64,000 nt of DNA from Chiloscyllium plagiosum (Eukaryota). The position numbers and the translations under genes are program-made. Of the stretch, positions 5,711 through 64,000 are shown one piece after another; positions within the stretch are counted from its first letter, which is position 1; each line of letters starts with the position of its first letter. Below the pieces are notes generated by a model. It was not told where the DNA came from. It made no database searches and saw nothing but the letters and a program-made list of their open reading frames with translations. The stretch lies in NCBI RefSeq assembly GCF_004010195.1, contig NC_057718.1:102489221-102553220 (forward strand). Reading direction: 5' to 3'.

Positions 5711-5909
5711 CTCTGTCTCCATGACTCCACTGCCCCCTGTGGCAAATGGGAGAATATAACAAGTAGGTTGCCATGGGGACATGGTGTGTGGGTCATAAGG
5801 TAGGTTTGGGAAGAGAGTGTGAGAAAACCCACTAAGGTTCGCAGAGAGAAACCCACCAAAACTGACACTTTGCCAATTTCCAGTAAGATTCAGCCCAACG
5901 TATTTTATG

Positions 5910-14525: not shown

Positions 14526-15007
14526 ATACCTCTTTGGCACAGCACAGCGTATTATTTAATTACCACATTGTTGAATGTCCTTGATATATTTGACATCCCC
14601 TAGCCACAGTGTGCAAATTATGTTCATAATTATTAATTGCAGATGTGTACATTTTCTTAAAATAAATAATCTTTTGAGAATTGCTTACACAGTACATCAA
14701 ATGCTACAAGGGTTAGTGTCTGATCATTGCTTGTGTTGCTGCTGCTATAGCTGTTCCCACCCAAAGGATCTGCTGTCAATGGTACTTCCTGCTTGTCTGT
14801 CTTGTGCCACCCTCATACATTCCCTGTGGCATGTCTATAACCACTCCGTGACATGTGTCATCCAACTATGCCAATGCCAACCCCTCTTTCTGGTGTTCCC
14901 TACATGACAGCTCTGATCACATTGATAAAATACTGATATTTTCTTTTCTTAATGTCACTTTTTAGAGTTATTTTCACTTTTGCAGGTTCAATTACCTCTT
15001 CGTTTGT

Positions 15008-15199
15008 CAGAAGTCACACAACACCAGGTTATAGTCCAACAGATTTATATCAAATCACAAGCTTTCGAAGCGCTGCTCCTTTGTCAGGTGACCTGCTGAA
15101 AGCTTGTGATTTGATATAAACCTGTAGGACTATAACCTGGTGTTGTGTGGCTTCTGACTTTGTCCACTCCAGTCCAACACCAGCACCTCCACGTCATGG
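15008..15199. mobile_element. Palindromic mini Penelope-derived insertion (family B)
   Basis: Arms 15008-15068 and ~15098-15158 are reverse complements; 12-bp TSD CTCTTCGTTTGT (14996-15007) / CTCTTCATTTGT (15200-15211). Relatives at ~18571-18782, ~49145-49336 and ~53465-53560. Confidence 0.8.
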
Positions 15200-16680: not shown

Positions 16681-16918
16681 AGGGAAAAAGTGAGGACTGC
16701 AGATGCTGGAGATCAGAGCTGAGAATGTGTTGATGGAAAAGCGCAGCAAGTCAGGCAGCATCCAAGGAGCAGGAGAATCGACATTTCGATTCCTGAAGAA
16801 GGGCTCATGCCCGAAACATCGATTCTCCTGCTCCTTGAATGCTGCCTGACCTGCTGTGCTTTTCCAGTGCCACACTTTTTGACTGACTCTCCAGCATCTG
16901 AAGTCCTCACTTTCTCCC
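16681..16918. mobile_element. Palindromic mini Penelope-derived insertion (family A), both arms near full length
   Basis: 16684-16788 is the reverse complement of ~16812-16918; a single-arm relative lies at ~16287-16413. Confidence 0.85.
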
Positions 16919-17650: not shown

Positions 17651-18809
17651 AATGGAACACATTCTGTTGGCATCATTCTGCATTGCAAAACAACCATCCA
17701 ATCATTACTCAGCTTCACATTTTTTACATCATCCAGGAATGCTCTTACACACAACTGATCTTTTCCCCGTCACCAAATTACCTATGGTATTTTATCCATC
17801 TTTTAAACCACCACCAACATACCACTCACGTTTTCAATTGATTAATTTACATGCAAAGCCCATTAACTACAATGCAAACCATCAAAAGTGAGGGAGAGGG
17901 GAACGGGGAGGGAGAGAAACCATATTGGAGTTGAAGGGGACGACTCAGCTTCACCTACTTTCTAATCAACCTGTTCACCACTGGAATAGATAGATTTGAA
18001 CCCCGACTTTCTGACTCAAAGGTAGGGATATTACCCTGCACCACAAGAGCCCTCAAACTACTCAGCTTCATAGCCCTATTCACACACTAGTTCCATCTGT
18101 TCCTTCTTTATATCCACCCAGTCAATTTTTTTTTATTCATGAGATGAGGGCGTCACTTGCTAGGCCACCCATCCTCATTGACAGAGGACAGTTAAGTGTT
18201 AACCACATTGCTATGGGTCTGGGGTCACATGTAGGCCAGACCATGGTGGGATTTGAAGTTGGGTCCCCAGAACATCACCTGGGTCTCCTGCAATAATACC
18301 ACTAGGCAATTACCTCCCCAACCCAGTCAATACATTAATCAATTTACCTAACTGATCTGCTTGATAGTTTGCTATATTAAGAGATTTCTCTCCTTTCTAA
18401 ATAAAATAATTGAAGAGATACAAACAATGCTTGAACAAAATGAATTAAAATCAAACTTTTCAATTTCACAACTGATCAGTATCTTTTCCTTCTTATTCCA
18501 TAAAATACAATCAATATTCCATATTTCCATTTCTTTCTCTGATGAAAGAAAAAGTTGATTTGTTTTCTTGTTGGACAAAATCAGAAGTCACACAACACCA
18601 GATTATAGTCAAACAAGTTTATTTGAAGTCACAAGCTGCTCCTTTGTCATGTCCACTACAGCTGATGAAGGGCAATGCTCCAAAAGCTTGTGATTTCAAA
18701 TCAACCTTTTGGACTATAACCTGGTGTCGTGTGATTTCTAACTATGTTCACCCCAGACCAACACCAGTACTTCCACACCACATTTTCATGTTCTCATAAC
18801 TCCTCAGAC

Positions 18810-31229: not shown

Positions 31230-32595
31230 TTGAGCTGTGAGGCAGATGCTTTAGTGTGATTTGGACAAGCTATGTGAGTGGGCAAATGCATTGTAGAAGA
31301 TCCAATGTAAGGTGAAAAAATATAAGGCTATCCACTTTGGTAGCAAAAACAGGAAGTCAGATTTATTGTCTGAATAGCTATAAATTGAGGGAGAGGAATG
31401 TGTAATGAGACCTGAGTGTCCTCATACATCAGTTGCTGAAGATAAGCATGAGGGTGCAGCAGGCGGTAAAGATGGCAAATGGTATGCTGACCATGTAATA
31501 TGAGGATTGAAGCAGGGATATTTTGCTGCAATGATTCAGAGCCTCAGTGAAACCACATCTAGAATATTGTGAGCAGTTTGGTCTCCTTATCTAAAGAAGA
31601 ATGCTCTTACTATAGAAGGAGTGGAGCAAAGGTTTACCGGACTAATTCCTGGTGTACATGAGGAGAATTTGAATCAGTTAGGATTCTATTTGGTCAGTTC
31701 ATGAGAATGAGGGGGGACCTCAAAGAAATCTCTTAGATTATAACAAGACTAGACAGAGCGAGTTTTGAGAAGATTTATAGCTCAGATTGAGGTTCTGAAT
31801 GTAAGTTTTCTCACTGAGCTGAAAAGTTCATTTTCAGATGTTTCGTCACCATACTGGGTAACATCATCAGTGAGCCTCCAGTGAAGGACTGGTATTAGTG
31901 ACCCGCTTTCTATTTATGTGTTTAAGTTTCCTTGGGTTGGTGATGACATTACCTGTGGTGATGGTGGTTCCTGTGATGATGTTATTTCCTTTTCTTTTTC
32001 TCAGAGGATGGTAAATGGTTCCTGTGGTGATGTCAGTACCACCCTCTGAGAAAAAGAACAGGAAATGAAATCACCACAGGAACTTACATCACCACAGGCA
32101 ATGTCATCACCAACCCAAGGAAACCTAAACACATAAATAGAAAGCAGGTCACTAACACCAGTGCTTCAACAGAGGCTCACTGATGATGTTACCTAGTATG
32201 ATGATAAAACGCCTGAAAATGAACCTTCCAGCTCACAAGCAAACTTACATCCAGACTAGCCAGAGTAACTGCAGAAAGGAAGTAGCTGATGGCAGGGAGT
32301 CTAGAACCAAGGCTCACAGTCTGAGGACATGGTAAACCATTTAGGACTAAGAGGAAGAAAAATTTCTTTGCCCGAAGCGTGGTGAGCCTGTGGAATTTGC
32401 TACCACAAAATGCAGTTGAGGCCAAAATATTGTGTGATTTTAAGAAAATAGTTGGATAAAGCACTTGGGGCTAAAGGAATAAAAGGAAATGGAGGAAACG
32501 TGGGAAAAAGCTATTGAGTGGAATGATTAGCCATGATCATAATGAATGCAGCAGGCTCTAAGGGCTGAATGGCCTACTCCTGTTCTTACTTTCTA
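31230..32595 (+). mobile_element. CR1-type LINE 3' part interrupted by a palindromic Penelope insertion
   Basis: DLDKLCEWANA, IHFGSKNRK, LVKPHLEYCEQFGL, FFARSVVSLWNLLPQNAVEA. Confidence 0.85.
31759..32252. mobile_element. Palindromic Penelope (Poseidon-like, family C) terminal-repeat insertion
   Basis: ~31795-32013 is the reverse complement of ~32037-32255; TSD AGACTAGACAGAG (31746-31758) / AGACTAGCCAGAG (32253-32265); same sequence as the terminus at 62648-62855. Confidence 0.85.
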
Positions 32596-36337: not shown

Positions 36338-37878
36338 ATTTGCAGTATAATGAACTGTACTATATTTATATGTTAATGTATTGTGTTTGAATTTGATTCT
36401 ACAGTTACATTTTGACTATTTGACTTTACCCGGTGCTTCAGTTCCAGGTCTCATGGCACTACTGCCACCTTGGTGAATGGTGAGCACAAGTCCTGATGTC
36501 CTCAAAGTAGTCATTGTTCCTTTCTGGATAAGTTTAGAACTTTTTCTGATCTTATTTTATTTTCATTAATTTATTTATTACATTATAATTTTGTACACTT
36601 CATAACTTACATACTCCAATGTAAGATATTTTCACATACTAAGAATGTTTCAATGCATTATGGATGCAATTGAGATATAAAGATCATTCATGTATATAAA
36701 AATGAGATCACTTAATTGTTTAACAATTTTAGAAAATGTCAGTTTTAATCACATATTTAATTGATAGTTATCACATCCCTCTCATTCAACATGGCTTTTA
36801 ACTGATACAATACAGAAAATCATAAATAAAAATGTCTATTTTTTGATTTCTGCAAGGAGGTTGCTAGTCTCTGGTTTACTGCTTCATACTTATTTATGAA
36901 GAAGCACTGAGAAAGAAATTATAACTAAACTGTTTACTGGAAAGAGAACATCAATAAATAGTGTCATATCCAAACATGCGAATTAAAGATGAATATTGGG
37001 AGCCTTCACATAGTAATAGGCAAAGAGCAAGCACAATCCTACCAAACTATGGTTAGAGCTTCATTAAAAAGAATACAAAATAAGTAATGGACAGAGTAAT
37101 AGACATGGTTATGAACCCAACACAATTTTATGGATCTATTTCTGTGATTCACTGTTTATTGATGTGTATCACAAACAGACAAGAACTGAACAATTACAGT
37201 ATTTGCCATTAAAGAATGTTGTTGCCTATACACCCACAGTTCAGCTCTGCTGGGGATCAGAAATCACAGTAATTTGTTTTGACAAGTGCTTGCATGATAA
37301 AAAAAAGTGTTAAATGGAAGTCTTTCCTTCTAGTTCACCAACAACTAACTCTGGAATGCACCACATACTTGCTACTAGAATTCTAGTTGGCAAACATCCT
37401 CTTTTGTCTATCTCACTTCCCTCTCTCTCTAGTTCTGGTATTATAAAAATGTAAATAGAGAGATGAAGGTCTTTCCTCCTTGCACAGCATCCAGTCAGGT
37501 TGTGCAACTAAAGGTACAAGATTCTTAGATCCAGGTAAGTCCTGTTGTTTACAGACAAGATTCACGTGTCGACAGGCCACTACAGGAATAGCAAGTTAGA
37601 TGCATATTTAAAAAGCAAACACGGACAGCATGCATAGTATAAACATTTGGTGTAGTCAGAACCTTGACTTAATTAATAATACATTTTAATCCAGATGACC
37701 TTCTTCTGCAGATAAAGGGACTCCTGAGTTAAGAGCAAGGATTTTGCAACAGCACATTTTTAAAATGTATATATCAAGAAATATACACAGTATTTTTAAA
37801 CTGCTAGCATTTGCCAGCTTATGTTTTGGAGCTCCCTGCTTCAGTAGCATATTCACTGCAAGACTGATCTGAATTCAG

Positions 37879-38985
37879 AGTCAAAAATGTGGTGCTGGAA
37901 AAGCACAGCAGGAGAATCAATGTTTCGGGCATAAGCCCTTTGTCAGGAATGAGCCTTGTGGGCTGGGGCAGCTGAGAGACAAATGGGAGGAGGATGTGGC
38001 TGGGGGAAGGTAGCTGGGAACGCGATAGGTAGATGAAGGTGGGGGAGAAGGTGATAGGTCAGAGAGGAGGTTGGAGCGGATAGATGGGAAGGACGATGGA
38101 CAGGTCAAGAGGGCGGTGCCGAGTTGGAGGCTTGGGACTGGGATAAACTGGGGAGAGGAGAAATGAGGAAACTGGTGAAATCCACATTAATCCCGTGTGG
38201 TTGCAGGGTTCCAAGGTGGAAGATGGGGCGTTCTTCCTCCAGGTGTTGAGTGGTTAGGGTTTGGCAATGGAGGAGGCCCAGGACCTGCAGGTCCTTGGTT
38301 GAGTGGGAGGGGGAGTTAAAGTAATTAACCACGGAGCGGGGGGTTGGTTGGTGCGGGTGTCATAGAGATGTTCTCTGAAATGATCTGCAAGTTGGTATTC
38401 TGTCGCCCCGATGTAGAGGAGACCACATCGGACGCAATGGATACAGTAGATGACATTTGTGGAAGTACAGGTAAAGGACCCTTTGGGGCCTTGGATGGAA
38501 GTGAGGGGAGATGTGTGTGTGCAGGTTTTGTACTCCTTGCGGTGGCTGTGGAAGGTGCCTGGAGGGGTGTGTGGACTGGTGGGCAGTGTGAATTTGATAA
38601 GGGAGTCACGGAGGGAATAGTCTCTCTGAAATTCTAATGGGGTAGGGAGGGAAATATATCCCTAGTGGTGGGGTCTGTTGTAGGTGGTGGAAGTGGTGGA
38701 AGATGATGTGACGTATACAGACATTGGTGGGTGGAAGGTGAGGACCAGGGGTGTCCTGTCCTTGTTGCGTTGGGAGGAATGGGATTCAAGGTTGGAGGTG
38801 CGGGAAGTGGAGGAGATGCGCTGGAGGTAATCGTTAACCATGTGGGAGGGGAAGTTGCGGTCTTTGAAGAAGGAGGCCTTCTGGGACGTTCTGTGATGGA
38901 ATTGGTCATCCTGGGAACACATGCGGCGGAGGCGGAGGAATGGAATAAGGGATGGTGTTTTTATAGGAGGCAGGGTCAGAAGTGT
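37879..38985 (-). mobile_element. Penelope (Neptune-like) inverted left arm: RT C-terminus, GIY-YIG and terminal repeat
   Basis: CSQDDQFHHRTSQKASFFKDRNFPSH, DRTPLVLTFHP, LEEERPIFHLGTLQPHGINVDF; mirrors ~46670-47730. Confidence 0.9.
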
Positions 38986-39638
38986 AGTCCAGCTCCATCC
39001 AGAGCCGCAAAGGATCCTTTCACGTCTGGCAAATTACCCAGAGTAAGTTAGCTAGGTTGACCACCAGGTTTTAAAACAGACAAAAACTTATTCACAAAAT
39101 TACTGGGGTAAATGTAGAATGACGTGGAATGGGCTTGGGTGGGATACTCTTCGGAGGGGTTGGTGTAGACTTGTTAGGTCAAAGGGCCTGTTTCCCCACT
39201 GTAAGGATTCTTAAAAAAACCTCAGTCTATCTATGTTGTTCCAAAAAATATGTGCAACAGTCTCAATAGACAAACCGCTTAAACACAGAGCAAAAATGAA
39301 GCAAAGGCTTATAGGTCGAAGTTAGAAGGGCAGAAGGAGAAAGAGTCCAGAAGCCTGTTTCCACACAGCCCACAGCTGACTCAAATAAGACTTCAGCTTC
39401 CAAGGACTGACCACTCTTCTTTCGTTATACAGGTTATTTCTAAAACATGAAAGCTTTGGCCTAAAGTCTCATCTGTTTACGTATAAACAAAAAGGCCTCT
39501 CAGTAAACTCTTTCATCTCTGTACCAAACCAGTTGTTTTGGAATCCAGGTTGTTTTATGTCCCCTCTGAAAAAAAATCAAAAACACAGTATCCTTGAGAA
39601 AAGGTACAGTTTTTAGAAAAAAGAACAGCTTTGTGACA

Positions 39639-39649
39639 CCTCCCCCCTT
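39639..39649 (-). promoter_or_regulatory. Polypurine tract of the Gmr1-type element
   Basis: AAGGGGGGAGG immediately precedes the TGTCACA start of the 3' LTR on the minus strand. Confidence 0.85.
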
Positions 39650-42600
39650 AAAAAAAACCCATCAATATCCAAAGATGGCATCATTTTTTAAAACCCTCCA
39701 AATAAAAACTGGTTGGTACTCTAAGACACACATATACATGACACTGCCATGGCACCCCCACCACCAAATGCCTCTGTACCTCATTCAAGCCTTGATAACA
39801 CATCGGCAATCATGTTTTCGCAGCCTGCCACATGTGCTATTGTCAAATTGAATGGCTGCAATGACAAGTTCCATCTAAACAGTCTGGCATTTTTGTCCTT
39901 AAATTTCTCCACAAATATCAATGGGTTTGTCTCAGATGCTGGGAATATAAACACTGAAATGTTGTAATGTAACACCAAGCTCAAAGTGTCTTTCTCAACT
40001 GTTGAATATTTCTGTTAATGAATGTTCAACTTCCTGGAAAAATATCCGATGGGTCTTTCTATGCCCTGTTATCCTCCTGCAGAAGCACCGCACCAACACC
40101 CACATCACTGGCAACGATAACCACCTTGAAAGGCTTCGTGTAATCACGTGTGGCTAATACTGGAGCAGTGGTTAACCCAGTTTTTAGGCTGTCAAATCCT
40201 TTTTGACAGTCTTCTATCCACTGAAATTACTTGCCCTGTTCTAACAATTTGGTGAGTAGAACAGCCACACTGCTAAAATTCAACACAAACTTTCAGTAAA
40301 ATCCACTCAACCGCAGTACTACTCTTTTCATTGATGGTGTGGGAAATTCCCCAATTACTTTAGTTTTTGCATCTTGTGGGGTCATTTGTCCATGTCCAAT
40401 AACATGGCCCAGGCAGGTGACTTGGGCTTTGGAAAATTCACTTTTATCTGGGTTAATCACTAAGCCTGCCTTCCAAAGTCGATCGAACAAGTCTGATAAA
40501 TGCTGTAAATGTTCCTTCCATGAGTGACTAAAAATCACCAGGTCATAAATATACACTACACAGTTGGGTAATCCGGCAATGACCTTATTAGTTAATCTCT
40601 GAAATGTGCCAGAACGTTTTCCATACCAAATGGCATGACTTTAAACTGATATAGTCCATTTGACATTACGAAAGCCAAAATTGCCTTTGCTGTTTCTGAC
40701 AAAGGTACCTGCCAGTCGCCTCTGAGCAAGCCCAACTTAGAAATGTAAGTTGCCTGTCCCACCTTTTCAACACAGTCCTCCAACTGTGGAATTGGATATG
40801 CATCAGTCTTTGTAACTGCATTGACTTTTTGATAGTCCACACATAACCGTTGGGTACCACCTGGCTTTGGCACCATGACTATGGGTGAGCTCCAGTCACT
40901 GTAACTCACTTCGATTATGCCATCTTGGAGTATGCATTCTATCTCCTTCTGCCAACTTTAGAGGGTTATGCCTATAAAGATGTTGCTTAATCGGAACAGC
41001 ATCTCCTATGTCTACAGCATGCACAGTTAGGTTAGTACTTCCCAGTTTATTTCTGCATATCTCCCCACGTGATAGTAATAACTCTTTTAGGTCATTTCAA
41101 TTTTCTTGTGGAAGGTAACTCAATAATTTATCCTAATTTTATACAACTTCCTCATTGTCCAATTTGATTTGAGGAATGTCCAATTCAGAATCCTCTGAAC
41201 CTTGTTCTTCCTTGTGGGTTGTAATCATTAACACCTTCTCTTGCTTTCCCTCTCTGTCAAAATACCTTTTGAGCATATTCGCATGACACGCTCTGTGAGA
41301 TTTCTTCCTGTCTGGAGTCCCTATCAAGTAGTTCACCTCACTCAATTTCCTCTCGATTTGATAAGGTCCACGAAACTTTGCTTTTAAAGGTTCACCTAAT
41401 ACTGGAAATAATACCAATATCTTATCCTCAATGGAAAAACTGCACATTTTTAATTTCTTTATCCACTTTTTGTTTCATTGTATGCTGCAATACTTTTAAA
41501 TGCTGTCTAGCCAACTCACCAGCTCTATTTAGTTGTTCTCCAAAATTTGACACATAGTCAAAATGGGTGGTATCTGAATTCTGACTCATCAATTTCTCCT
41601 AAATCAATTTTAACAGCCCTCTTACTTCATGCCCAAAAATTAGTTCAAATGGACTGAATTACGTTGATTCATTTGGTGTATCTCTGCTTGCAAAAAGCAC
41701 ACATGTAACTCCCTTATCCCAATTATCTGGACAGTCCTGACTATAAGTCCTCAATGTGGTCTTTAGTATTTGATGCCATCTTTCTAGCGCTCCTTGCGAT
41801 TCTGGATGGTATGCAGTACATTTGAATTGTCTTATTCCCAAGCTAGTCATAACCTCCTTGAACAGTTTGGATGTGAAGTTTGACCCTTGATCTGACTGCA
41901 TCTCTATTGGTAGTCCGTATCTAGTAAACAATTTGAGTAATTCTTATACAACCCTTTTTGCTGTGATATTGCGCAATGGAACTGCCTCAGGAAATCTAGT
42001 TGATACATCCAACATTGTTAATAAATACTTATTCCCACTTCTTGTTTGAGGTAGGGGACCTGTGCAATCAATCAAAACTCTTGTGAAATGCTGGAATAGA
42101 TTTTAAAGGTGCAGGTTTTATTACTGTCTGTGATCTTCCAATAAGCTGATATATATGACATGTCTAGCAAAATTCAACTACATCCTTTTGTAGTCCATGC
42201 CAGTAAAAATGTCTTTGTATTTTAGCCTGTGTTTTCCTCACTCTTAAATGACCTCCAAGTGGTAGCTCACCCACCATTCGCAATACCTCCTTTTTATACC
42301 CTACTGGCAAAACAATTTGATGAATTTCTGCCCATTTCTTATCTGCTTGAATGTGCGCCGGTCTCCATTTCCTCATTAAGACATCCTTTGTTAAGTAATA
42401 ACAGACAGGGATGCATTCACTCTCCTCTGTATATGCCTTTTGATACAACTTCTTTAAGTTCTCATCTTTCTGCTGTAACTCAATATGCTTAGCAGAGGTA
42501 AAGATACTTGCATGTTTAACTATCTGCTCTGCTCTGTCCCACTTATCTGATCAAAAAGTCTTTGATTAGGCTACTTCAGCTTCCTTATATGTGCCTTTTG

Positions 42601-44422
42601 ATCTCTCCTGCTTCAGCTTGTGACTCTGTCATCTTGTTAAGACACAATCTGGGAAGATTCGTGAATAAACATCCTGCATTGCTTCAGTTGCCTGCGTCTC
42701 CACTGGCTTTTCAACCAGGGGAGGCAGCACACCTACCGGTGTATCAGCTATATCATTTGCAAGGACAAATTGTATTCCTGGAGCTGAGAGTTTGTCCAGT
42801 ACTCCTACCACAAATTCTCCACTCTGTTTTGGACTCTCCAGCCTCACTCTACATAATTGAGTGCTTTTTGTTTCACCATGAATTCCAATAACAAGTACCT
42901 TTTCTGGTAATAGTCCTTCAGGAGTACATATCTCCTCATTCGTCAGCATCACAGACTGAGAGCATCCTGCCCTTTAATATTGTAACCTCATTACCTGTTA
43001 CTCCTGGCCAATGTGAATAAACTTTACCCTTGCATGTATTTTTTTTAAGCAGATCTGGCACTTCCTCCCTAATCAACCTCTGATGCAGGTTTCTAGCTTC
43101 CACTGTGCTTTCAGTTACCATGCCAACAAAACTTCCAGGCTTGTCCTGTTTTCCCACATTTAGCTTTCTCCTAGCCCACCAACACTGTGATTTTATGTGG
43201 CCCACTTTATTACAATGAAAACACTGGAGCTTTTTATCTTCTTTGTCCCCTTCAAGGGTTTCCTTTTTACCCTGTGGTAAGTTATCCTTATGATATTCAC
43301 TGAGATCTACCTTTCCCTTTCCACATGAGGAATTCTCTTTGACCCAATTTCTATCCCTCCTGGACTAAAGTTGAGTCTGGAAGCCAAACTGCGTTTCATG
43401 GACCAGCTCATAATCATCAATCACTTCAGCTGTTAACCTTGCCGTTTTAACGCTTTGCTCTTCTGCATGGGTTCATGCTGTTTCAGGCAGTGATTTTTTG
43501 AATTCCTCCAAAATTATTGTCTAAGGGCGTCATAGGTTTGCTGCATTTTTAAAGCTCGCAACCACCTATTGAAATTACTTTGTTTGATACTTTCAAACTC
43601 AATATAGGTTTGACTAGGGTCCCTCCTTAGATTCCTGAAATGTTGTCTATAGGCTTCTGGTACAAGCTCATATGCACTTAAGATGGCTTTTTTCACATCC
43701 TCACACTCTCCAGATACCTCCTCTGATAGTGATGCGAAGACCTCACTAGCTCTATCTACAAGTTTTGTTTGGGTCAACGAAACCTAGATGGCCACTTTTT
43801 CAAATGAGATGAAAAAGGCTTCCACATCCTTCTCATCAAATTTAGGCAATGCTTGAACATACTTAAATAGTTTCTCACGAGGCTTTTGACTACCAGGGGC
43901 TTGCTCAGCCTCACTCTCTTTCTCACTAAGCCTGCCTTCAGCCTTCATCTCCATCTTTTTATGCTGACTTCCCTTTTTAAGTGTCAATTTCTGAAGTTCA
44001 AATGCTCTCTCCTTTTCTCTCTGTCCTGCTGCTCTCTCTTTTTCCCTCTCTTCTGCTTTTAATTGTAACTCAAACTGTTTCATTTCTGCTGCTCTTTCCT
44101 TATCTCTCGCCTCTAACTCAAGCTGCTTGTATTGCAATTGCAATTATCATCTCTATAGATCCTGATGGTGTTTCCAGCAAATTTAAATGCTAAGCTACTG
44201 CTGAAATCATCACATCTTTCCTCACATTTGGAGGTAGCTTCAACACCAGCTTGTCTACTTGCTCCTGCAGCTTGGTCACCTTCTATAAAACTTCCAAAGT
44301 CACCTCGTTCACCTCCAGAAAACTTTTGGCGACTGAAAGAGGCATTGCTATCCCAAGCTTTGTCTATCCAACCAAACCAACACCCGAAATAAAGACATGA
44401 GCATCTACTACTCGCTGTTCAA

Positions 44423-44440
44423 ATCAAGGACAAGCCCCCA
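44423..44440 (-). promoter_or_regulatory. Primer-binding site, tRNA-Pro
   Basis: TGGGGGCTTGTCCTTGAT, 3 nt after the 5' LTR; 15/18 match to the canonical Pro PBS TGGGGGCTCGTCCGGGAT. Confidence 0.85.
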
Positions 44441-44636
44441 ATCTGTTATGGTCTAGGCCAGATCACTCAAAACATTTTCTTAAGCAGGCAGCCCAGACCG
44501 TAGCTTTGTTATTTGTTTCAGTAAGTGTAGATTAGATTACTAGTGTACAGTGAAAATTACCCGGAGTAAGTTAGCTAGGTTGACTACCAGGTTTTAAAAC
44601 AGACAAAAAATTATTCACAAAATTACAGGATGAAAC

Positions 44637-45341
44637 TGTTATGGAGATGTGGTGTATGTTTAAGAGAGTTAAAAGCAGCAGAACTATCAGACACAGCACC
44701 AAGTGTTCTCAATAAGGCAACAATGTATTTAACACTGAGTTGAACAACTCGAGTAGTTTGTTGCCTGGAGACAAAAACAAATTCAATTGCCAAGTAGTTT
44801 AAATTATACCCTGATAAAAAATACCAATTTCCAATCAAGTTTGAATTGAGAATATTGACAACCTTAAGAGTCAATGACACAATCTGAGGCTATGGGGTAT
44901 TAGACCAGGGGAAAATTGAACAGTTGAAAGGGGAACTGACAAGCCCAGCATGTAACAGACTGCCTAAAAAATAGCTCTCTTAAAAAGGTACCTTTTCGAT
45001 CAGTAACCTGTGATGAAGAAATTCCTAAGAAGAAAAGAAGAACAGGAAGATCCAAATAGAAGAACAAAAGCTGCCTGGTTTTGAGATAAGAAGTGTTGTT
45101 TTGTAAATCTTATCTGGGAGTTTTATTGGACTAGTATCATAGAAGGAAAGGTAAAAAATAGGTTAGAGAAAGAAATTGTGGTTAGTTAACTATTCTCTGA
45201 AGTACTTTAAGAAATAAAGTTGTTAATTTTTACTTTACATAGTTCTTGGCCACTTGAATTTTTATAGATTACTGCGCGGGATAAATCTTTTCTGTGTTGC
45301 TGGTTTAAATTAAGCAGGAGGGTTTACCCCGTGTCGTAATA
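44637..45341. mobile_element. Solo LTR of a different family inserted in the Gmr1 5' LTR
   Basis: TGTTATG...CGTAATA termini, 4-bp TSD AAAC (44633-44636 / 45342-45345); absent from the other LTR; AATAAA at ~45213. Confidence 0.8.
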
Positions 45342-45799
45342 AAACACAAAGAACAGAATAAAGAATACCCACAGAACTCAGTCTATCCAAACTAGACTTA
45401 ATTATGCTGATCTGAAAAATATGTGCAACAGTACCAATAAACAAACCCCTTAAACACGGAGCAAAAGCTTACAGGTTGAAATTAGAAGGGCAGAAGGAGA
45501 GAGAGTCTAGAAGTCTGTTTCCACACAGCCCACTGCTTAACTGACTCAAATAAGACTTCAGCTTCCAGGACTGACCACTTCTTTCGTTAAATAGGTTCCT
45601 TCAAAAAAATGAAAGCTTTGGCCTAAAGTCTCATCTGTTTACGTATAAACAAAAAGGCCTCTCAGTAAACCCTTTCATCTCTGTACAAACCAGTTGTTTT
45701 GGAGCCCAGACTGCTTTATGACCCCTCTGAAAAGAAATCAAGGACACTGTATCCTTGAGAAAAAGAACAGCTTTTAGAAAAAGGATCAGTTTTGTGACA

Positions 45800-47759
45800 G
45801 ACACCTCCTACTACCCCCTTGACCACGACCTCACCTCCCATCGCCAAACCATCACCTCCGAAACCATGCACAACCTCATCACATCTGGGGATTTCCCATT
45901 GACAGCCTCCAACCTCATAGTCCGAGAATCCTACACCACCCGATTCTTCTTCCTATCGAAGATGCACAAACCTGACTGCCCCAATCAACCCACTGTCTCA
46001 GCCTGCTCCTGTCCTATCGAACTTGTCTCTACATACCTTGACACTGCCTTGTCCTCCTTTGTCCAGGAACTCCTCACCTACTTTCGGGATACCACCCACG
46101 CCCTTCACCTCCTCCAAGACTTTTGTTTCCCTAGCTCTCTACACCTTATCTTCACCATGGAAATCCAGTCCCTGTACACATCTATCCGTCATGACGAAGG
46201 CCTCCAAGCCCTCCATTTCTTCCTCTCACACAGTCCCAACTAGTACCCTTCCACTGACAGCCTCATCTGCTGTGCTGAACTGGTCCTCACCCTCAACAAC
46301 TTCTCTTCCCAATTCTCTCACTTCCTCCAAACCAAAGGCATAGCCATGGGCAACCACATGGGCCCCAGCTATGCCTGTCTCTTTGTCGGGTACGTGCAAC
46401 AGTCCATCCTCCGCAGCTACACTAGCACTAACCCCCACCTTTTCCTCCGCTACATCGATGAATTTATCTGCGCTACCTCCTGCTCCCACAAGGAGATTGA
46501 ACATCAACTTTACTAACACCTTTCACCCCAACCTCAAATTCACCTGGTACATCTCGGACACCTCCATCCCCTTCCTGGATCACTCCAACTCCATCTCCGG
46601 TGTCTGACTAATCATGAACATCCACCACAAACTCGCCAACTCCCACAGCTACCTGGATTACACCTCCTTCCACCCTGCCTCCTATAAAAACACCATCCCT
46701 TATTCCCAATTCCTCCGCCTGCACCACGAGTTCCCAGGATGACCAGTTCCACCAGAGAACATCCCAGATGGCCTCCTTCTTCAAAGTTTGCAAATTCCCC
46801 TTCCATGTGGTCGATGATGCCCTCCAACGCATCTCCTCCAATTCCCAAACCTCTGCCCTTGAACTCCACACCTCCCAATGCAACAAGGGCAGAAACCCCC
46901 TCCAGTCCTCACCTTCCACCCCACCAACCTCCATATACATTGCATCATCATCCACCACTTCCACCACCTACAAACAGACCCCACCAATAGGGATATATTT
47001 CCGTCCCCACCCCTATTAGCATTTTGGAAAGACTATTCCCTCCACAACTCCCTTGTCAGATCCACGCATCCCCACCAGCCCACACCCTACTCCTAGCATC
47101 TTCCCCTGCCTCCGCAAGAAGTGCAACACTCCCCCCTCACCTCCATCCAAGGTCACAAAGGATCCTTTCACATCCGACTGAAATTTACCTGGACTTCCAC
47201 AAATGTCAAATACTGTACCTGTTGCACCCGATGTGGTCTCCTCTACACTGGGGAGACAGGATGCCAACTTGCGGATTGTTTCAGAGAACATCTCTGGGAC
47301 GCCTGCACCAACAAACCCCACTGTTCCATGGCTGAACACTTTAGCTTCCCCTTCCACTACACCAAGGACACACAGGTCCTAGGCATCCTCCATTGCCAAA
47401 CCCTAACCACCTGGTGCCTGGAGGATGCCTCATTTTCTGCCTTGGGACCCTGCAACCACATGGGATTAATGTGGATTTCACCAGTTTCCTCATTTACCAC
47501 CCCCCACCCACCCCACACCTTATCCTAGTTCCCAAGCTTACAACTTGGCACTGCTGTCTTGACCTGTCCATTGTCCTTCCCATCTCTCTGCTCCACCATC
47601 CTCTCCGACTTATCACCTTCTCTCCCATCTTCATCTACCCATCGCATTCTCAGCTACCTTCCCCCTAGCCCCACCCACTTCCCATTTCCTGACCTGCTAT
47701 CCTTCTCCAAAACCACACTCTCGACTGTGATCTCCAACAACTGCAGTCCTCACTTTCTC
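45800..47759 (+). mobile_element. Penelope-like element (Neptune-like): RT, Cys-rich linker and GIY-YIG endonuclease pseudogene
   Basis: FFLSKMHKPDCP, IFTMEIQSLYTSI, KGIAMGNHMGPSYACLF, FLRYIDE, PFLD, FPCLRKKC, VKYCTCCTRCGLLYTGETGCQLADCFREHL; ends in the family A terminus. Confidence 0.93.
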
Positions 47760-47899
47760 CTGTTCTGAATTCAGTATTAAAGCAAGAATTTGTCAAAGAA
47801 ACAAAAGTTTTTGATGGAGCTAAGTGATCAATAGCCCCAGTCTCTTTCTCTTCCCAATACTGGTGCCACTGTTAATATTGAAGTGAGAAGGGTCATGAG

Positions 47900-48630
47900 A
47901 GTTTTCCTTGTCTGAAAACCTGAGCATGGAAGCATCATGTGTCACCATTTGTCCGAACTTTAATATACAGCTCAGAACTTTAGTACACAGTTACACCAAG
48001 GCTGATCCAAAGATTAGATCCTCACTTTCAAGAAGTCTATGGCTGCTTCACAGTTGGCTCTAGTTGAAGAAAGGTCTGCATTGAGTCTATGCGCAGTCTT
48101 AATGAGAGGGTTGTAAAATGGTGTGATCAGCTATGGTTGCAAAGGGTAGTCTTCGACTCCCATCTTTGCAATGCATCCAATCCCTTAAATGAAGCTGGAG
48201 CCTGAGAGTTCCTGGGTACCTGGCTCAGACTTCTAAAATGTGGTACCGATGGACAGAGAGGACTTGAATGCTGTGAAATGGAAGGCTAGCCTCTTAATGA
48301 AATCAGCTGCAGTATGATATAGCACTCTCAATGCAACATATTGAGTCTATAGTGCACTTCACCTGGGGGAAGCCAGCTATGCTGGCAAAGCACATTACCG
48401 AGGCTGTGGCACTGACCTCATCATGGGGAAGTGAGATGATGTGGGATGATCTCACACAAATTGCATCAGTAACAGCCTTGATACCTTTGTGGGCTAAGGA
48501 TTGGGAGATCCTATACAGGTCCCCTGAGAATCCTTGGAAGCAGTTACAGAAAACTTTAATGCAGCTGTCACCCAACCACTGGGATAGGATGGCCATCCAC
48601 CCCTTTAGATCATAAGTCCTGCTCCAACAG
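47900..48630 (-). mobile_element. PIF/Harbinger transposase fossil (HARBI1-like DDE)
   Basis: FQGFSGDLYRISQSLAHKGIKAVTDAI, FASIAGFPQVKCTID, ARYPG, DYPLQP*LITPFYNP, STRANCEAAIDFLKVR; probably continues to ~49140 beyond an HE1 insertion. Confidence 0.8.
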
Positions 48631-48632
48631 AT

Positions 48633-48976
48633 CATAGAAGAATCATAGAACCCCTACAGTGAGGAAACAGGCCATTCAGCCCAACAAGTCCACACTGACC
48701 CTCCAAAGAATAAATCACCCAGGCCCATTCCCCCTACCCTACTACTCTACATTTACCCCTGACTAATGCACCTAATCTCTACACATCCCTGAACACTATG
48801 GGCAATTCACCTTACCTGCACATCTTTGGATTGTGGGAGGAAACTGGAGCACCCAGAGGAAACCCACACAGACACAGGGAGAATGTGCAAACTCAACACA
48901 GGCAGTTGCCTGAGGCTGGAATCGAACCCAGGAGCTTTGAGGCAGCAGTGCTAACCACTGAACCAACATGCTACCC
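48633..48976 (-). mobile_element. HE1 (V-SINE) copy
   Basis: Colinear with the other HE1 copies. Confidence 0.9.
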
Positions 48977-49719
48977 AAGATGATGCAGTTCTGTTTGCTG
49001 GTGCATTTGTTCCTCCTAAATTGCCCTGCATCTTTGTTGCACCATGGCCACAGTGACAATACTTCTTGCTGCAGCTGGATCTATTGATCCTGGTTCTAGT
49101 GAACCAATGTGAGGTATATTGGAAACTGAACAGGTCCTTAGTAATGTGATTTGGAGGTGTCGGTGTTGGACTGGGAAGGACAAAGTTAAAAATCACACAT
49201 CAAGATTAATCAGTCCAACAGGTTTATTTGGAAGCACTAGTTTTCGGAACCATCTGATGAAGGAGCAGTGCTCCGAAAGCTACTGCTTCAAAATAAAGCT
49301 GTTGGACTATAGCCTGGTGTTGTGTGATTTTTAACTTAATAATGTGAGCAGTCAGCATTCACATCATTGTTGAACAGTCTTCGATGCAATGGAACATGAA
49401 CGACTCTGATAAGGAGGGCCATAAAAATGCCTGAACATAGATCATTGATATAATAGATGTTATCCAGCTGTATGTAGCACAAGCCATGTAATCTAAATAT
49501 AGTAAGAGATTGTAAGATAGATTGATAAGATTAATGAAACCATGTGTCCCCCAACTCACAACGCCTGCAATTACTTCTGTTTTACAGAGATGAACATAAG
49601 CAGTTAGCAAAGGTCTGGATTGCTTGTGAACAGGATTTGTAACCTGCATATTTACATGGATTTCAGATGCACGATTCTACACTTATAGATGTCTTTTATC
49701 TGTACTGTTTAAGCACCCT

Positions 49720-52440: not shown

Positions 52441-53899
52441 TCCTCCTACATGATCACGTGGGAGGCCATTTGGCACGTTTCCTTTCTGTTTCTCAGGTGG
52501 ATATAAAAAATTCCAGAACACAGTTTCAAAGAAGAGGAGAGTTAATCCTCCTTCAAACTCTCCAACTCTTTCCTTCTTTGAGACACTCCTTAAAACCCTA
52601 CTTCTTTGACAAAACTTTCAGTCATCTGCTGCAGTTTTGCCTTATGTGGATCAGGAATAAAGCTTACTTGATGACTGCTCCTGTGAAACGCCTTTTGTCA
52701 CTTTAAGACTGCTATACAATTGCAAATTATTGATCTGAAGGAGGTCACTGGACCTGAAATATTAATTCTGCTTTGTGTCCACAGGTGTTGCCAGACCTGC
52801 TGGGTTTTCCTAGCAATTTCTGCTTTTGTTGCAAATTATTGCTGTTGTAGATGATCTAGTGTCACAGTGTGGTTGATGGGAGGTGTCTGCGTGCAAATCG
52901 GTTGCTTCATTTCTTACAATGAAGACAAAGAATACTTCAAAGCAGCACTTCATTGGCTCTAAAGTGTCTAGTATGCCTCATAGGGCAATGAAAGACACTG
53001 TACAAATTTGACTTCTTCCTTTCCATAAAAAACTCTCCAAACAAGCTTTTGCACACCTTTGCCCTGCCACATGAATTTCAATGGTTTGGACAGTGGTGGG
53101 TTGGAAATACGTGAGTCAATATTCCTACCTTTAAAAGCACCGTGCCCACGCAAGTTGTGAATCCTGTTCTCTTGGAAGAGGGGCAGAGATAGATAGGTTC
53201 TTGAGTTGCAAGGAGATCATGGGTTACAATGAGAATGGGACTGAGACATTTATCAGCCATAATTGAATGGCAGAGCAGACCCGATGGGCTGAATGGCCTA
53301 ATTTCTGCTCCTATGGCTTATGACCCAAACAGAAAGTAAGAAAAAGGGAGGGAGACTCCACTTGAGCTGCAGTAGGCACATCGACAAACAGGCCACCATG
53401 ACAAAGGGGCTAGTGTTGTTGTTGTAGTGGAACGACATAACGATTCTTTCGAAAATATGATTCGGAGATGACCACCTGATGGAGGAGCAGCGCTCCGAAA
53501 GCTAGCGCTTCCAATTAATCCTGTTGGACTATAATCTGGTGCTGCGTGACTTGTAACTTTCGAAAATAAACCGCCAGAACGGTAACGTTCATTCTAGTTT
53601 TTTTTCCTCTCTCTCCATCGATGCGGAGTTTTTCCAGCAACTTCTGTTCACACTTGGTCGCCGACGGGATGGAGTGGCACGCCCGTCGGGGGCGCGGGGG
53701 TAACGCACGACGTTTGGCCAGCGGGGACGCGCGCGCGGGGGAAAAGCATGACGTAGGCCGCCTGGCCGCGCGCGCGCGACGACGGTCGACGTCGGTCGGC
53801 GAGGGGCAGGGGCAGGGGGGCGCGCGCGCGCGGGGGTAAAGCACGACGCAGAGGCCGCCTGGCCACGTGCGCGATGACGTATTACGTAGGCCGGCGAGG

Positions 53900-54031
53900 G
53901 GCGGGAGACGGAACGCGCTCGGCGTTGGTCGGCGAGGCTGTGGGTGGTGGTGGTGGAGGAGGAGGAGGAGGAGGAGGCGGCGGCGGCGGCGGCGGCACGC
54001 GCGAAACATTGGCGGACGGGGACGTACGTAC
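53900..54031 (+). other. Candidate non-coding first exon (start approximate)
   Basis: Lies just downstream of the promoter motifs and ends at the donor TAC|GTGAGT (GT at 54032). Confidence 0.45.
53943..53996 (+). repeat. Compound trinucleotide repeat (GGT)4(GGA)7(GGC)7
   Basis: Read directly: 18 consecutive GGN triplets. Confidence 0.95.
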
Positions 54032-54419
54032 GTGAGTGAGTGATTGAGTGCGTGCGTTCCCGGATGTGCGGCCGCTCTGTCCTCCTATCCCTCCCCTTGC
54101 GGATTTAGACGGCGGCACCGTGCGCTCAGTTCGGGCTTAGGGCTTTTTAATTCCCTTCCCCTCCCCCCACCACCACCGAAAAACAAACGAGAGGGGAAAA
54201 AAAAAATCTGGGGTTTGGGAGGGGGGTTGGTGGAGAAGAGAGGAAAAACTCGGCTGCGGATCAGGCGTTTTGCAGCAGGAGCGGGCGTTAACAATTTTTT
54301 TGGGGGGGAAAGAACACCATCCTTCTCTCCCATTCCCCTTCCTTTCCCCCCCCGCCCCCTTCCCCCCCTTCAAACCGCCGGTGCTTGGGTAAAAAAAAAC
54401 ATCCAGTCACAACATCCAG

Positions 54420-54475
54420 GTGAAAACGGCGGTTGATCGAAGTCTCTGGAAGCTTCACCTTCGGCGGCCAGGATG
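54420..54475 (+). other. Candidate exon ending in the start codon (start approximate)
   Basis: CCAGGATG|GTGAGC: ATG at 54473-54475 with A at -3, directly followed by a good donor; possible acceptor CATCCAG| at 54419. Confidence 0.4.
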
Positions 54476-56779
54476 GTGAGCGTGCCCTTTTTTTTTCGGG
54501 GTGTGCTGGATGGAGGGTGAGGGGAGGGGGGGTGCGTTTTTATGATCACTTCGCTCGGGTTTGTTTTTATTTGTGTTGTGTGTGTGTCGGCGCTGATCGT
54601 GAATGTAGTGTATTGTCTGAGCTCCTGGGCGGGAGGGCGGCCATCACGGTGCCACCGCCGCAGTGTGGGCCCGGACTCAGCTGGGCGCAGCCTTCGCCTT
54701 TCTCTCTTTCTCTCTGTCCCCCTCTCTGTCTCCCCCGGGCAGTGGCTGGGTTCTCCTGGCCTCGACCCCCCCGCCCTTATCCTGCCGAGCCTCCAGGCCC
54801 TGCCACCTCTCCCCAGTCCTAACCTGGCGCCTCCCTCTTACCTTCTGCAACCAGCTGGCCTTGGCACCCGTTCCCTCGGATCGGCACCATTACATTAAAC
54901 GTTTATTTTATTTCACACCCCGCCCTTTCCCTCATTGAGCTGCAGCTCCGGGGCTGCGTCCCACTCTTGCTTTTACTTGCAAAGCTGACTCTTATTTGCC
55001 AACCCCGTTTCCTTTTTCCTCCTTTATTTATAGGTTGCACATTGACACACTTCAGATGACTTGATGTGTTTTTTTTTCGCTGGCTGCTCGGGGGGAGGGA
55101 GGGGGGAGTGGGGTGGTTTTTAAACTATGTTGTCCTTTTTTGGAACCCTCCACCTGCCTCAACATTACAGGAGCATTAGATGCAAAATCTAACTTTTTTC
55201 CTTGGTAGTTGTAATAAGTAATCATCTTTTTGTTTGGGCTATCCAGGTGGAGTTTGTTTGGTCGCCTTGAGTCAGGGGAATCTTTCGAGCTGTGCATTTT
55301 GTATTTTGAATGCTTGTTATGGATAGTGGAAAACATTTTTAGCTCAGTGTTGAGTTCAAGTTAAGTTTAAAATGGAGGGGAAGGTATTGGCTAGTACTCC
55401 AAAAAGACAAATGTTTTAGTGTAGGACTTGAGAGTGGAGCTGAAATGGTAGCTAACCTGTTGTCCAGTGAGGTATATTATAACTTAAGACTGAAATCAGA
55501 TAACTTATCTATAATAATTTCTAAGTGAAGTGGAATGTGTCAGATGGTGGTGATCTTGAATAGAAAATACTAAAGATGTTCAGTAGATCAATCACCCTTT
55601 CTGGAGAGAACAGAAGTTTCAGAACTTTATACAAAATTGTTTGCCGCAATTGTAAAATTGAGCTTTGTATTAAAGCTTCAGGTATTGGGACTTCTAATCT
55701 GTTTTATCTTGTATGCATAGTTTTAACTTGGCTGACAATTTTTTCAACATGGATTGTTTTGAACTTTATTATAGGGAATAGGTGACAGTTCAGTCCTCTG
55801 GTTTCTAAAATATAAGTTGAATTGTTGGAAACAAATTGCAAAATGGAATAATTTAAGAAATAAGATGGGGTGGCTCTTATTAGAAAGTTGAAATAAAATC
55901 CCCTGAGGAATCTCCCTGATCTTTATTTGGTATAGAAAATTTGTGATGGCATATGATTTCTTTTACTGTTTTTGAAAATGTAGTATGCCATTGTTTTTGA
56001 AATGTTTGAAACTCCACACAGGAGTTGTATAACTTGTCACAATGAACAATTGCTATCAAATAATTCTTAATTTGAAACAAGAGGACTATTTGACAGAAGC
56101 AATCAACTGTTTAAGTTACTGTAAATCAAATTAACTGTTTCAGAAATTTGAGATGTGGCTATGATACATTTGTACATCTATTGGAAAAACAAAATAGCTG
56201 GTGGGAAATTCAAATCAATGCTTCCCTTGGGAAATGTTTCACTATGTTGATGCTTGGGGGAATAGGATCTACCATCACTCCTTGCAACTGTGATCCCATG
56301 AGATGCAGTGTAATGATCCTGCAAGACTTCTCCTAACTAAGAACACCTGATGATTTAACATGTTTAGGTTTCTCTTGTGGATAAGTAAATTTACACCAGT
56401 TAATCACCATCATCTCATAACTCTTGTCTGAGAGTTCAGATACTCCTTTGATACAGGAAACAGGTGAATATTAATTTAAGCCCACGTAGTTAATTTTCCT
56501 CTGTAGCCCATAAGTGCTGACTTAAGCCCTTGAATAGCCAAATTGAAATCACGTACTTGAGGGCTTCGGACGTGGAACCTTCTCTGTGACTCGTGACTGC
56601 ACTGAGCTGCAAATTTATTAACTGTGCTTTGGGATTATGGTTATGCTTGTAATGTTTTTTCAATTTTTGATTTTAAACATGTGCAAAAAGTCTTCAGACA
56701 TGTTACATTTTCTACAACTATTATTTAACTATGTCAAGACATAATGAAATGGCCCAAACCAGTTCCATTAGCAGCTGAA

Positions 56780-57420: not shown

Positions 57421-58219
57421 ACTTCCCTCTTCCACTCCCTCAAACTTTCTTTGCCACTTCTTTACCACATAGCTACTGTCTTTAGGAACAGGACTTTGTT
57501 TGCAATATGTGATTAATTAGTCACTAAAGTAGAATGAAGTGTTTTTGTTACCAATTTTGTGGGCAAATAATGTGATTATGAAATTCTGAAAAATTGTATA
57601 GACTTTTGGATGATGTATACATTGTTTTCGGTACAACTCTCTGGAGAGCATTTGGTAGGGAATTTATAAAATTGACAGACCCATTACTGGAGAAAGGATA
57701 ACTGCAACCATTTTGCAATCCCTTCTCCGGTAGCTTTTAGGTCAATTTAGTTAATTGAGCATCTGCTGATTTGTCTTGGGACTTGCATTTAAGTAGTGTT
57801 TTTTGTCGCCTTGAGGATTTCTCAAAATGCCTTGCAGCCATTGGGGTACTTGGTGTGGTCTTTGTCATGTTGAAAACCTACACATGCCAAGGTCCCTTAA
57901 GCAGCAACTATACAGTCATACAGCATGGAAATATCCTTCAGTTCAACTCATCCATGCCGACCATGTATCCTAAACTGATCTAGTCCCATTTATCAGCATT
58001 TAACCTATATCCCTCTAAACCACTCCTATTCATTTAACCATCCAGGTGACTATTTAAATGTTGCAATTGTATTTGGCTCCACTACTTCTCTGGCAGCTCG
58101 GTCCATGTATGCACCACTCACTGTGAAATGTTGCCCCTCTGGTTCCTTTTAAAATCTTTCGTGTCTCATCTATGTCCTCTAATTTTGGATTCACCTACCC
58201 TGGGTAAAAGCCTTTTACT

Positions 58220-58828
58220 CAAAGTTTGTGCGAAGATTTGTAGCTCAGAACTGACAGCCAGACTACTGCGACCCCTAGAACTCATAACGGCACACAAACC
58301 AACAGCCACGCTCAGACAACAACTCACCAGAACGAAGGACCCGATACCCAACATGAGCAAAACTAATGTAGTGTACAAAATACCATGCAAGGACTGCACA
58401 AAACACTATATAGGACAAACAGGAAGACAGCTAACAATCCGCATACATGAACATCAACTAGCCACGAAACAACACGAACAGCTATCCTTAGTAGCCAAAC
58501 ACGCAGACAACAAGCAACATGAATTCGACTGGGACAACACTACTATCATAGGGCAAGCCAGACAGAAAACAGCCAGGGAATTCCTAGAGGCATGGCATTC
58601 ATCCACAAACTCCATCAACAAACACATCGACCTGGACCCAATATACCAACCACTAAAGCGGACAGCTGAAACTGACAACCGGAAATGGCAGGGACAGACC
58701 ACTATAAACACCGGAGAAAACATCAAAGAAGTGCTTCGCAGGAGGCCCCCAAGCACTGATGATGTCGCCTAGCCAGGGGACGAAACGTTTGCAACAAAAA
58801 CTTCCAGCTCGGCGAACAGAACCACAAC
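58220..58828 (+). mobile_element. Young 5'-truncated Penelope (Poseidon-like) insertion with an open GIY-YIG domain
   Basis: Uninterrupted frame SELTARLLRPL...NVVYKIPCKDCTKHYIGQTGRQLTIRIHEH...AREFLEAWHS; perfect 11-bp TSD AGCCTTTTACT (58209-58219 / 58829-58839); inverted terminal piece at 58220-58246. Confidence 0.93.
58753..58792 (+). ncRNA. Minimal type I hammerhead ribozyme motif (family C), core intact
   Basis: GCA-CUGAUGA-U-GUCGCC-UAGCCA-GGGGAC-GAAA-CG-UU-UGC: stem I GCA/UGC, stem II with one G-G mismatch, palindromic ACGU stem III. Confidence 0.8.
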
Positions 58829-62647: not shown

Positions 62648-64000
62648 AGTTTTGAGAAGATGTGTAGTTCAGGTTGAGGTTCTGGATGTAGGTTTGCTAG
62701 CTAAGCTGGAAGGTTCATGTTCAGACGTTTTGTCACCATACTAGGTAACATCTTCAGTGAGCCTCCGGGCAAACCATTGCTGACGATTCCTGCTTTCTAT
62801 TTATATGCTTGGGTTTCTTTGGGTTGGTGATGTCATTTCCTGTTCTTTTTCTCGGTGGTGAATCAGGTCCAAGTCATTGTTTGTTTGTTGACAAAGTTCT
62901 TTTTGGAATGCCATGGTTCTAGGAATTCTCGTGCGTGTCTCTGTTTGGCTTGTCCTAAGGTGGATGTATTGTCCCAGTCGAAGTGGTGTCTTTCCTCATC
63001 TGTACATAATGATATTAGTGAGAGAGGGTCATGTCATTTTGTGGCTAGGTGATGTTCATGTATCCTGGTGGCTAGTTTTCTGCCTGTTTGTCCAATGTAG
63101 TGTTTGTTACAGTCCTTGGATGATATTTTGTAAATGACATTAGTTTTGCTTGTTGTTCGTATAGGGTCTTTCAAGTTCATTAGTTGCTGTTTTATTGTGT
63201 TGGTGGGTTTGTGGGCTACCATGATGCCAAGGGGTCTGAGTAGTCTGGCAGTCATTTCCAAGATGTCGTTGATGCAGGGGGCAGAGTGGCTAGGATTTCT
63301 GGACATGTTTTGTCTGCTGGTTTGGGTTTGCTGCTGAGAAATCTGTGGATTGTGTTCATTTGGTACCTGTTCTTTTTGAATACTTGGAAAAAAAGGTGAT
63401 TTTCCTCTGCTCTGCATAGTTTCTGTGAGCTGGCTCTTTGGAATAATGTTCTGATGCTGCTTCATTTGTGGATGTTGGGATGATTGCTTCTGTAGTTCAA
63501 TATTTGGCCCCTATGTATTTTCCTGTAGATGCTGGTTTGAAGTTGGCTGTTTGCTCTCTGTGACATCGAGAAATGGCAGTTTGTTGTTTATTTTCCTCCT
63601 CTTTAGTCAATTTTATGCTACTAATGGTGCTATTGATGGTTTTGAAGCTATCTTCTAATTTGTTCTGTTTAGTGATGACAAAGGTGTCATCCATGTAGCG
63701 GATCCAAAGTTTGGATTGGCTGGTTGGCAGAGCTGGTTTGAGTCTCTGCTAAGTACTCTGATATTGGAGATCCCATGGGTGTTCCGTTGGCTTGTCTGTA
63801 GGTTTTGTTGTTGAAGGTGAAGTGGGTGGTAAGGTATAGGTCCATTAGCTTGACAATACTGTCCTTGCTGATGAAGTTGGTGGTGTTTGTATCTTTTGGG
63901 TCTTCTCATAGTGTAGTTACTACACTCCTCTCCTCTCCTACATCAAAGACATCTCGGAAATGACTGCCAGACTACTCAGACCCCTTGGCATCATGGTAGC
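62648..64000 (-). mobile_element. Penelope (Poseidon-like) element: decayed RT and GIY-YIG on -, switching to a + strand piece at ~63925
   Basis: GTPMGSPIS, WIRYMDDTFVI, LEMTARLLRPLG..NVIYKISSKDCNKHYIGQTGRKLATRIHEH; terminus 62648-62855 with a degenerate hammerhead at 62721-62760; 63925-64000 reads LPYIKDISEMTARLLRPLGIMV on +. Confidence 0.9.

Follow-up and report, generated by a model that had tools for sequence, protein, structure and literature searches.

Endonuclease-positive (EN+) Penelope-like elements are described, in the available portion of Craig et al. 2021 (PMC8557442), as inserting in compound units in which an inverted truncated copy is followed by a truncated direct copy preceding a longer direct copy, and in which a tail extension of 30-40 bp is often found at one end only. 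The same portion names a CX2-5CxxC linker between the reverse transcriptase (RT) and the endonuclease as the mark of Neptune and Nematis, whereas Penelope/Poseidon are without such a linker. For PAc of Anolis, the tail lies between two RT start sites, and both strands are cut and extended, according to the accessible part of that report (Frangieh et al. 2024, PMC11167929). Penelope elements are also able to carry gene-sized cargo in trans, as stated in the available part of PMC3846280, and Gmr1-like long terminal repeat (LTR) elements follow the order protease (PR), integrase (IN), RT, RNase H (RH) with a SCAN-bearing gag in the accessible text of bioRxiv 10.1101/2025.03.03.638093. Here we describe a locus that combines both kinds of element in a 64,000-nucleotide stretch of Chiloscyllium plagiosum DNA (contig NC_057718.1, positions 102,489,221 to 102,553,220; hereafter the window). 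Two arms of a Penelope-like element, one inverted (1.1 kb) and one forward (2 kb), lie within a single outer target site duplication (TSD) and have an antisense Gmr1-like element between them. All components and the overall layout are already known. We consider it probable that the locus arose by ordinary nesting, in which Gmr1 integrated later in Penelope and one homology-guided deletion followed.

The two 15-mers forming the TSD on the plus strand (37864-37878 and 47760-47774) agree at 14/15 positions, and the last four bases of the left copy also continue the element end seen in other copies. A match of at least 14/15 is expected by chance with a probability of 5.8e-8 per position or 2.3e-5 over 400 placements, and nothing else on the plus strand of the window scored above 12/15. 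When a TSD search was performed uniformly, scores of at least 8 were obtained for 7 of the 11 window copies of the same Penelope family, compared to 4 of 300 random pairs; the nested locus scored 12. The inverted, 5'-truncated arm (37879-38991, minus strand) comprises the RT thumb, linker, GIY-YIG, 3' untranslated region and a decayed hammerhead-like core, has no tail and contains 5 frameshifts. The forward arm (45800-47759, plus strand) starts at the Asp of QLxDTSSY, encodes RT, a CX4C linker and GIY-YIG, and ends with the tail. It has 6 frameshifts and 2 stops, and its hammerhead region is deleted at 47687/47688. Alignment of the inverted arm to 46653-47728 of the forward arm revealed 834 matches and 159 mismatches, and the arms hold further internal deletions with short shared ends. 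The best named protein matches were from Chiloscyllium punctatum (70-72% identity).

The TSD, the tail geometry, shared subfamily characters and neutral divergence together support the reading that the two arms behave as a single Penelope insertion. As judged by eye, the tail is present on one arm only in 5 of the 6 two-armed copies of the window, and the contrast between clipped and TTTCTCC ends corresponds to the published optional tail. Measured against a third copy, 36 sites and an 8-bp gap are common to both arms, and 18 and 27 sites are private to one arm; the arms also have residues in common when compared with the relatives P0001 and P0002. Differences between the arms are distributed evenly over codon positions (35/259, 46/257 and 44/253, p=0.60, after removal of 32 columns with conflicting frame calls) and are therefore likely to reflect mostly neutral decay. 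An origin from two separate Penelope insertions, flanked by a 15-bp repeat by coincidence, would agree with an arm divergence of 16-17%, above that of three small palindromes (13/100, 11/95, 8/65), and with terminal 38 arm bases that differ at about nine sites by eye. Given the chance probability of the TSD, the characters and residues shared by the arms and their complementary tail geometry, such an origin is scarcely credible. A single insertion, identical end geometry to the small palindromes and the 15-bp TSD at these coordinates had all been proposed in a preliminary description of the DNA, together with the inverted 1.1-kb and forward 2-kb arms around Gmr1; the observed features were confirmed and the single insertion is supported.

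A short piece of Penelope sequence on the plus strand (38990-39039), equivalent to 47138-47189 with 41/49 identical positions, joins the inverted arm and ends in homology shared with the LTR. It is best read as the head of a 5'-truncated direct copy in the inverted-plus-tandem layout, because it stands head-to-head with the inverted arm with a 2-bp overlap, as in the small palindromes. Only about 50 bp of this upstream direct copy are left, and the remainder would have been lost. The preliminary description had recognised the piece and had called it re-inverted; no special re-inversion is needed, since it fits the published partial-tandem layout.

Several features of other Penelope copies were observed in addition. 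The sixth two-armed copy (16682-16918) has tails on both arms, which differ in subtype (22/108), and no TSD was found for it; it may represent two insertions or two templates. Arm ends have 2-4 bases in common with the adjoining TSD (37875-37878, 9484-9487 and 47760-47761), namely CTGA where the tail is missing (two copies) and C, CC or CT where it is present (several copies), which suggests that at each of the two start sites the nicked target anneals to the RNA. The palindrome 5909-6238, which is flanked by a TSD, holds between its arms about 105 bp of foreign DNA (5995-6110) resembling a LINE/SINE 3' tail, presumably CR1-like. GAATG is present on both sides of this piece, as might result from later insertion or from capture at the inversion point.

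The Penelope-like element matched the relatives P0001, P0005 and P0019 by tblastn and frameshift-aware alignment, with RT followed by a C-terminal GIY-YIG in one ORF; P0005 carries RVT_1 and GIY-YIG. By themselves, the Penelope pieces of the window are weak in Pfam, with no match in one search and E=0.05 in another. The QLxDTSSY motif, at whose Asp the forward arm begins, is present in the relatives P0001, P0002, P0009 and P0014. EN+ elements carry two cysteines between GIY and YIG as well as histidines (CCHH). Residues C155, C158, C161 and H180 (P0019 numbering) are invariant in both arms and both references, and the last His of the CCHH set is frameshifted in the left arm. The CX4CxxC linker is complete in P0019 and P0005; the right arm keeps CX4C ahead of a deletion and the left arm is decayed in this part. 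As judged from these sequence features, the element is of the EN+ type with a Neptune-type linker, and it probably belongs to Neptune or Nematis rather than Poseidon, since the linker is whole in the relatives and partly kept here. The label Poseidon was dropped for this zinc-finger-like linker. A hammerhead core-like motif, recognised by eye, is mutated in the left and deleted in the right arm, and an Rfam search for hammerheads yielded no match at E<=1. A metagenome search with P0001 returned 95 stretches, none of which was confirmed, and the sole match of a metagenome pattern search, a 66% GC contig, was rejected as a chance match with no Penelope homology.

The antisense element between the arms is a decayed copy of a Gmr1-like element. 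The aligned part of its gag-pol region (39787-44126, minus strand) includes SCAN, zinc knuckle, protease region, integrase, RT and RNase H, with 9-11 frameshifts and 16-19 stops. Pfam matches on the minus strand occur in the order of integrase pieces (42550-41142), RVT_1 (40957-40296) and RNase H (40226-39784). The protease gave no Pfam match and was placed by alignment to full-length relatives, and the gag SCAN match (PF02023, E=0.0009) is partial and below the curated cut-off. Paired LTRs, a primer-binding-site-like stretch and a polypurine tract (PPT) are present, all on the minus strand. The 5' LTR (44444-45799) has intact TG...CA ends and is interrupted by a solo LTR. The 3' LTR (39031-39638) begins at 39031 and is abutted by the PPT (39639-39649); its missing outer 110 bp, already noted in the preliminary description, correspond to 44444-44553 of the 5' LTR. 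The primer-binding-site-like stretch (44423-44440) lies three bases inside the 5' LTR and is presumably of the tRNA-Pro type. No published source for the length of the Gmr1 TSD or its primer tRNA was found in the open-licence literature. A solo LTR elsewhere in the window (4431-5003) shows a relationship to the Gmr1-like LTR in its outer end, and its flanks ACCC and ACTT are possibly a decayed 4-bp duplication.

Two later inserts were found in the LTRs. A solo LTR of another family (44637-45341, 705 bp, strand not assigned) is nested in the 5' LTR between duplicated AAAC (44633-44636 and 45342-45345), and a tail fragment of a SINE-like dispersed repeat (39107-39211, plus strand, left edge approximate) with no visible TSD lies in the 3' LTR and is presumably HE1-like. 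Since each sits in one LTR only, both postdate the formation of the LTRs.

At the right junction, TTTGTGACA is joined to GACACCTCC at 45799/45800, as previously stated. Here CA is the exact end of the 5' LTR, and the next base already belongs to native Penelope sequence, without filler. A precise CA end without filler is what integrase would leave. The first Penelope bases beside the LTR, GACA (45800-45803, plus strand), would be the surviving copy of a short integrase TSD, of which only this right copy is visible; the left side is deleted. At the left junction, Penelope 47179-47193 and LTR 44551-44565 share homology at 13/15 positions, one of 5 loci (9 windows of 1,241,548) reaching 12/14. 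The microhomology noted in the preliminary description thus exists and is longer than first given. As the end of the Penelope stub falls within this match, the left junction was probably guided by homology, which fits deletion and template switch alike.

We infer the following order of events. A single Penelope-like integration at a 15-bp staggered cut would have been primed from both nicks at the two start sites of the element, giving a TSD, an inverted truncated copy, a direct truncated copy (from the 47138 equivalent), a longer tailed direct copy and the second TSD. The Gmr1-like element would then have entered the open reading frame (ORF) of the longer copy in antisense orientation, immediately before the Asp codon at 45800. 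A single deletion, guided by the 13/15 homology that the 3' LTR shares with the upstream direct copy, may subsequently have taken out what remained of that copy together with the beginning of the longer one; the left target duplication of Gmr1 and 110 bp of LTR would have gone with them. The solo LTR and the SINE-like fragment would have reached the two LTRs separately.

The preliminary description had left two histories open, later insertion of Gmr1 with a microhomology-mediated deletion or hitch-hiking of Gmr1 inside a Penelope, and it had proposed to compare the divergence of the arms with that of the LTRs. For the divergence counts, columns within two of a gap were dropped. The LTR pair is less diverged than the arm pair when all differences are considered (42/448 vs 162/963, p=0.0002), at non-CpG sites (36/434 vs 110/874; Kimura two-parameter distance, K2P, 0.089 vs 0.139; p=0.02) and for transversions (13/448 vs 50/963, p=0.053). 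A non-stationary model gave an LTR/arm time of 0.67 in a free fit and 0.61-0.75 over five fixed AT biases (p 0.0095-0.136). Frameshifts, 9-11 in 4.3 kb of Gmr1 compared to 11 in 2.5 kb of the Penelope ORF (p 0.11-0.27), point weakly in the same direction, and those of Gmr1 may be undercounted because the references are only 40-43% identical. The indel clock (5 vs 16 gaps, p=0.49), GC-neutral changes and the stop clock are each too weak to decide. The substitution clocks thus indicate moderately, not decisively, that Gmr1 is younger than the arms, which the stop clock does not confirm.

These ages bear on the possibility that Penelope-like machinery itself placed the whole Gmr1 element here, either as part of an 8-kb read-through RNA that it copied or as Gmr1 cDNA caught between nascent arms, with homology-guided switches at one or both junctions. 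Any such co-mobilisation requires an LTR/arm ratio of at least 1 and is therefore disfavoured by the observed ratio; taken as a whole, we regard it as unlikely. Its first form, hitch-hiking, would start from a Penelope elsewhere that already held an antisense Gmr1, whose read-through RNA of about 8 kb was copied in trans with a template switch at the 13/15 homology. It is plausible in principle because Penelope elements can carry gene-sized cargo in trans, as far as the available part of the source describes (PMC3846280); the homology at the junction would serve a template switch no less than a deletion, and the stop load of Gmr1 fits the age of the arms. Apart from the divergence ratio, it is opposed by the required donor locus not being seen in the window and, weakly, by seven AATAAA hexamers (later inserts excluded) on the strand to be transcribed. 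Copies of the same Penelope family elsewhere in the window measure about 0.1-0.4 kb, far from an 8-kb cDNA. We hold hitch-hiking to be quite unlikely, and later insertion of Gmr1 with deletion is favoured over it by the LTR-versus-arm clock, moderate as this is once corrected, and by parsimony. Papers found on the subject in the open-licence literature were general ones, and none dealt with an LTR element carried by Penelope.

In capture at integration, a free Gmr1 cDNA would have become linked to the two nascent Penelope arms, through an end-to-end join at CA on the right side and through homology on the left, so that all parts are of the same age and no donor locus is needed. This model accounts for a precise LTR end without a left TSD as well as for the homology of the left junction; the 105-bp foreign piece between the arms of the palindrome 5909-6238 offers a possible parallel, and the stop clock is compatible with equal age. 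Equal age is, however, rejected at p 0.01-0.14, and no precedent was found in the open-licence literature, so that capture seems very unlikely.

Several results weigh against later integration of Gmr1 into a single Penelope insertion. GC-neutral changes are equal in arms (17/781) and LTRs (8/406; p=1.0), and correction for composition leaves the clock borderline, with p=0.059 in the free fit and p=0.075-0.14 under strongly AT-biased decay. Gmr1 contains 16 stops in 1442 codons, a number that falls to 12 when two poorly aligned linkers are left out. An age equal to that of the LTRs predicts 8.8-12.7 stops and one equal to that of the arms 13.6-18.0, giving a likelihood ratio of 0.64-4.6 for arm age. 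This clock is noisy, as the arms have 2 stops vs 4-7 expected, and is neutral or mildly against a younger Gmr1. A 62-bp identical run in the LTR pair (p=0.03; the arms have one of 49 bp, p=0.02) makes some homogenisation of the LTRs possible. The codon-position test leaves room, by our own arithmetic, for about 4% of arm difference already present at insertion, and no partial tandem of the same Penelope family was seen elsewhere in the window. Neither the left Gmr1 TSD nor the lost tandem copy was observed. Finally, the first nine bases of the right flank equal the LTR-end/PPT boundary of the other LTR, a kind of match touching the LTR end that is given by only 3 of 1930 arm positions, the present one among them. 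The coincidence, spotted post hoc, is unexplained and keeps homology-driven origins alive. One of these would make the right junction a deletion as well: the upstream unit of a tandem Gmr1, whose two units had the middle LTR in common, would have been lost through a join of the LTR/PPT boundary with Penelope at GACACCTCC, and 4 bp would have been duplicated in addition. Since it calls for a tandem arrangement, another deletion and one more duplication, we consider it highly improbable.

Other features of the window lie outside the nested locus. A decayed frame on the minus strand (48100-48650) has no Pfam match and resembles, we presume, a Harbinger-type transposase. About 6 kb downstream of the nested locus is a CpG island (53600-54900) in which motifs of the CACGTG/TGACGT type recur and a 95-bp unit is present as a tandem pair (53716-53905); a probable first exon in it ends in ATG followed by GT near 54476. 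Palindromes of other repeat families were found at 15006-15192, 18572-18776, 49152-49337 and 31757-32255, and a further Penelope family is represented by GIY-YIG-like frames at 58050-58772 and 63034-63510.

If ordinary nesting is correct, the locus is a tidy kilobase-scale example of the Penelope inverted-plus-tandem unit, disguised by later insertions and deletions. If Gmr1 was instead carried or captured, the Penelope RT would handle 8-kb composite templates or foreign cDNA. Carriage or capture, if true, would constitute an integrase-independent route of spread for LTR elements and would bear on the mechanism of Penelope integration.

Compared with the EN+ Penelope-like unit, as described in the available portion of PMC8557442, the locus has the same inverted 5'-truncated copy, beside a putative partial tandem, the same 30-40 bp tail at one end, RT followed by GIY-YIG and a CX2-5CxxC linker. 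It differs in that an LTR element replaces the middle of the unit and that the upstream direct copy is reduced to a stub of about 50 bp. The two RT start sites that delimit the tail of PAc (Frangieh et al. 2024, PMC11167929, in its accessible part) match the two arm ends found here. However, the PAc start sites are described there as non-homologous to the cut DNA, whereas each arm end here shares 2-4 TSD bases, and PAc belongs to the Poseidon clade in contrast to the Neptune-type linker of this element. With the nonribosomal peptide synthetase (NRPS) gene of Adineta vaga mobilised by Penelope (PMC3846280, available part), the locus has in common foreign DNA between Penelope repeats within one TSD. 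The cargo there lies between bare pLTRs and lacks its own terminal repeats, and an empty allele was demonstrated, whereas the insert studied here interrupts an ORF, terminates precisely with an LTR and is apparently younger than the arms. The SCAN-bearing gag followed by PR, IN and RT-RH agrees with Gmr1-like elements in the accessible parts of bioRxiv 10.1101/2025.03.03.638093 and PMC11117352, from which this copy differs in being decayed, with a clipped 3' LTR and no left TSD; without the later inserts it measures about 5.9 kb, compared to 6.1-6.5 kb given there for pufferfish.

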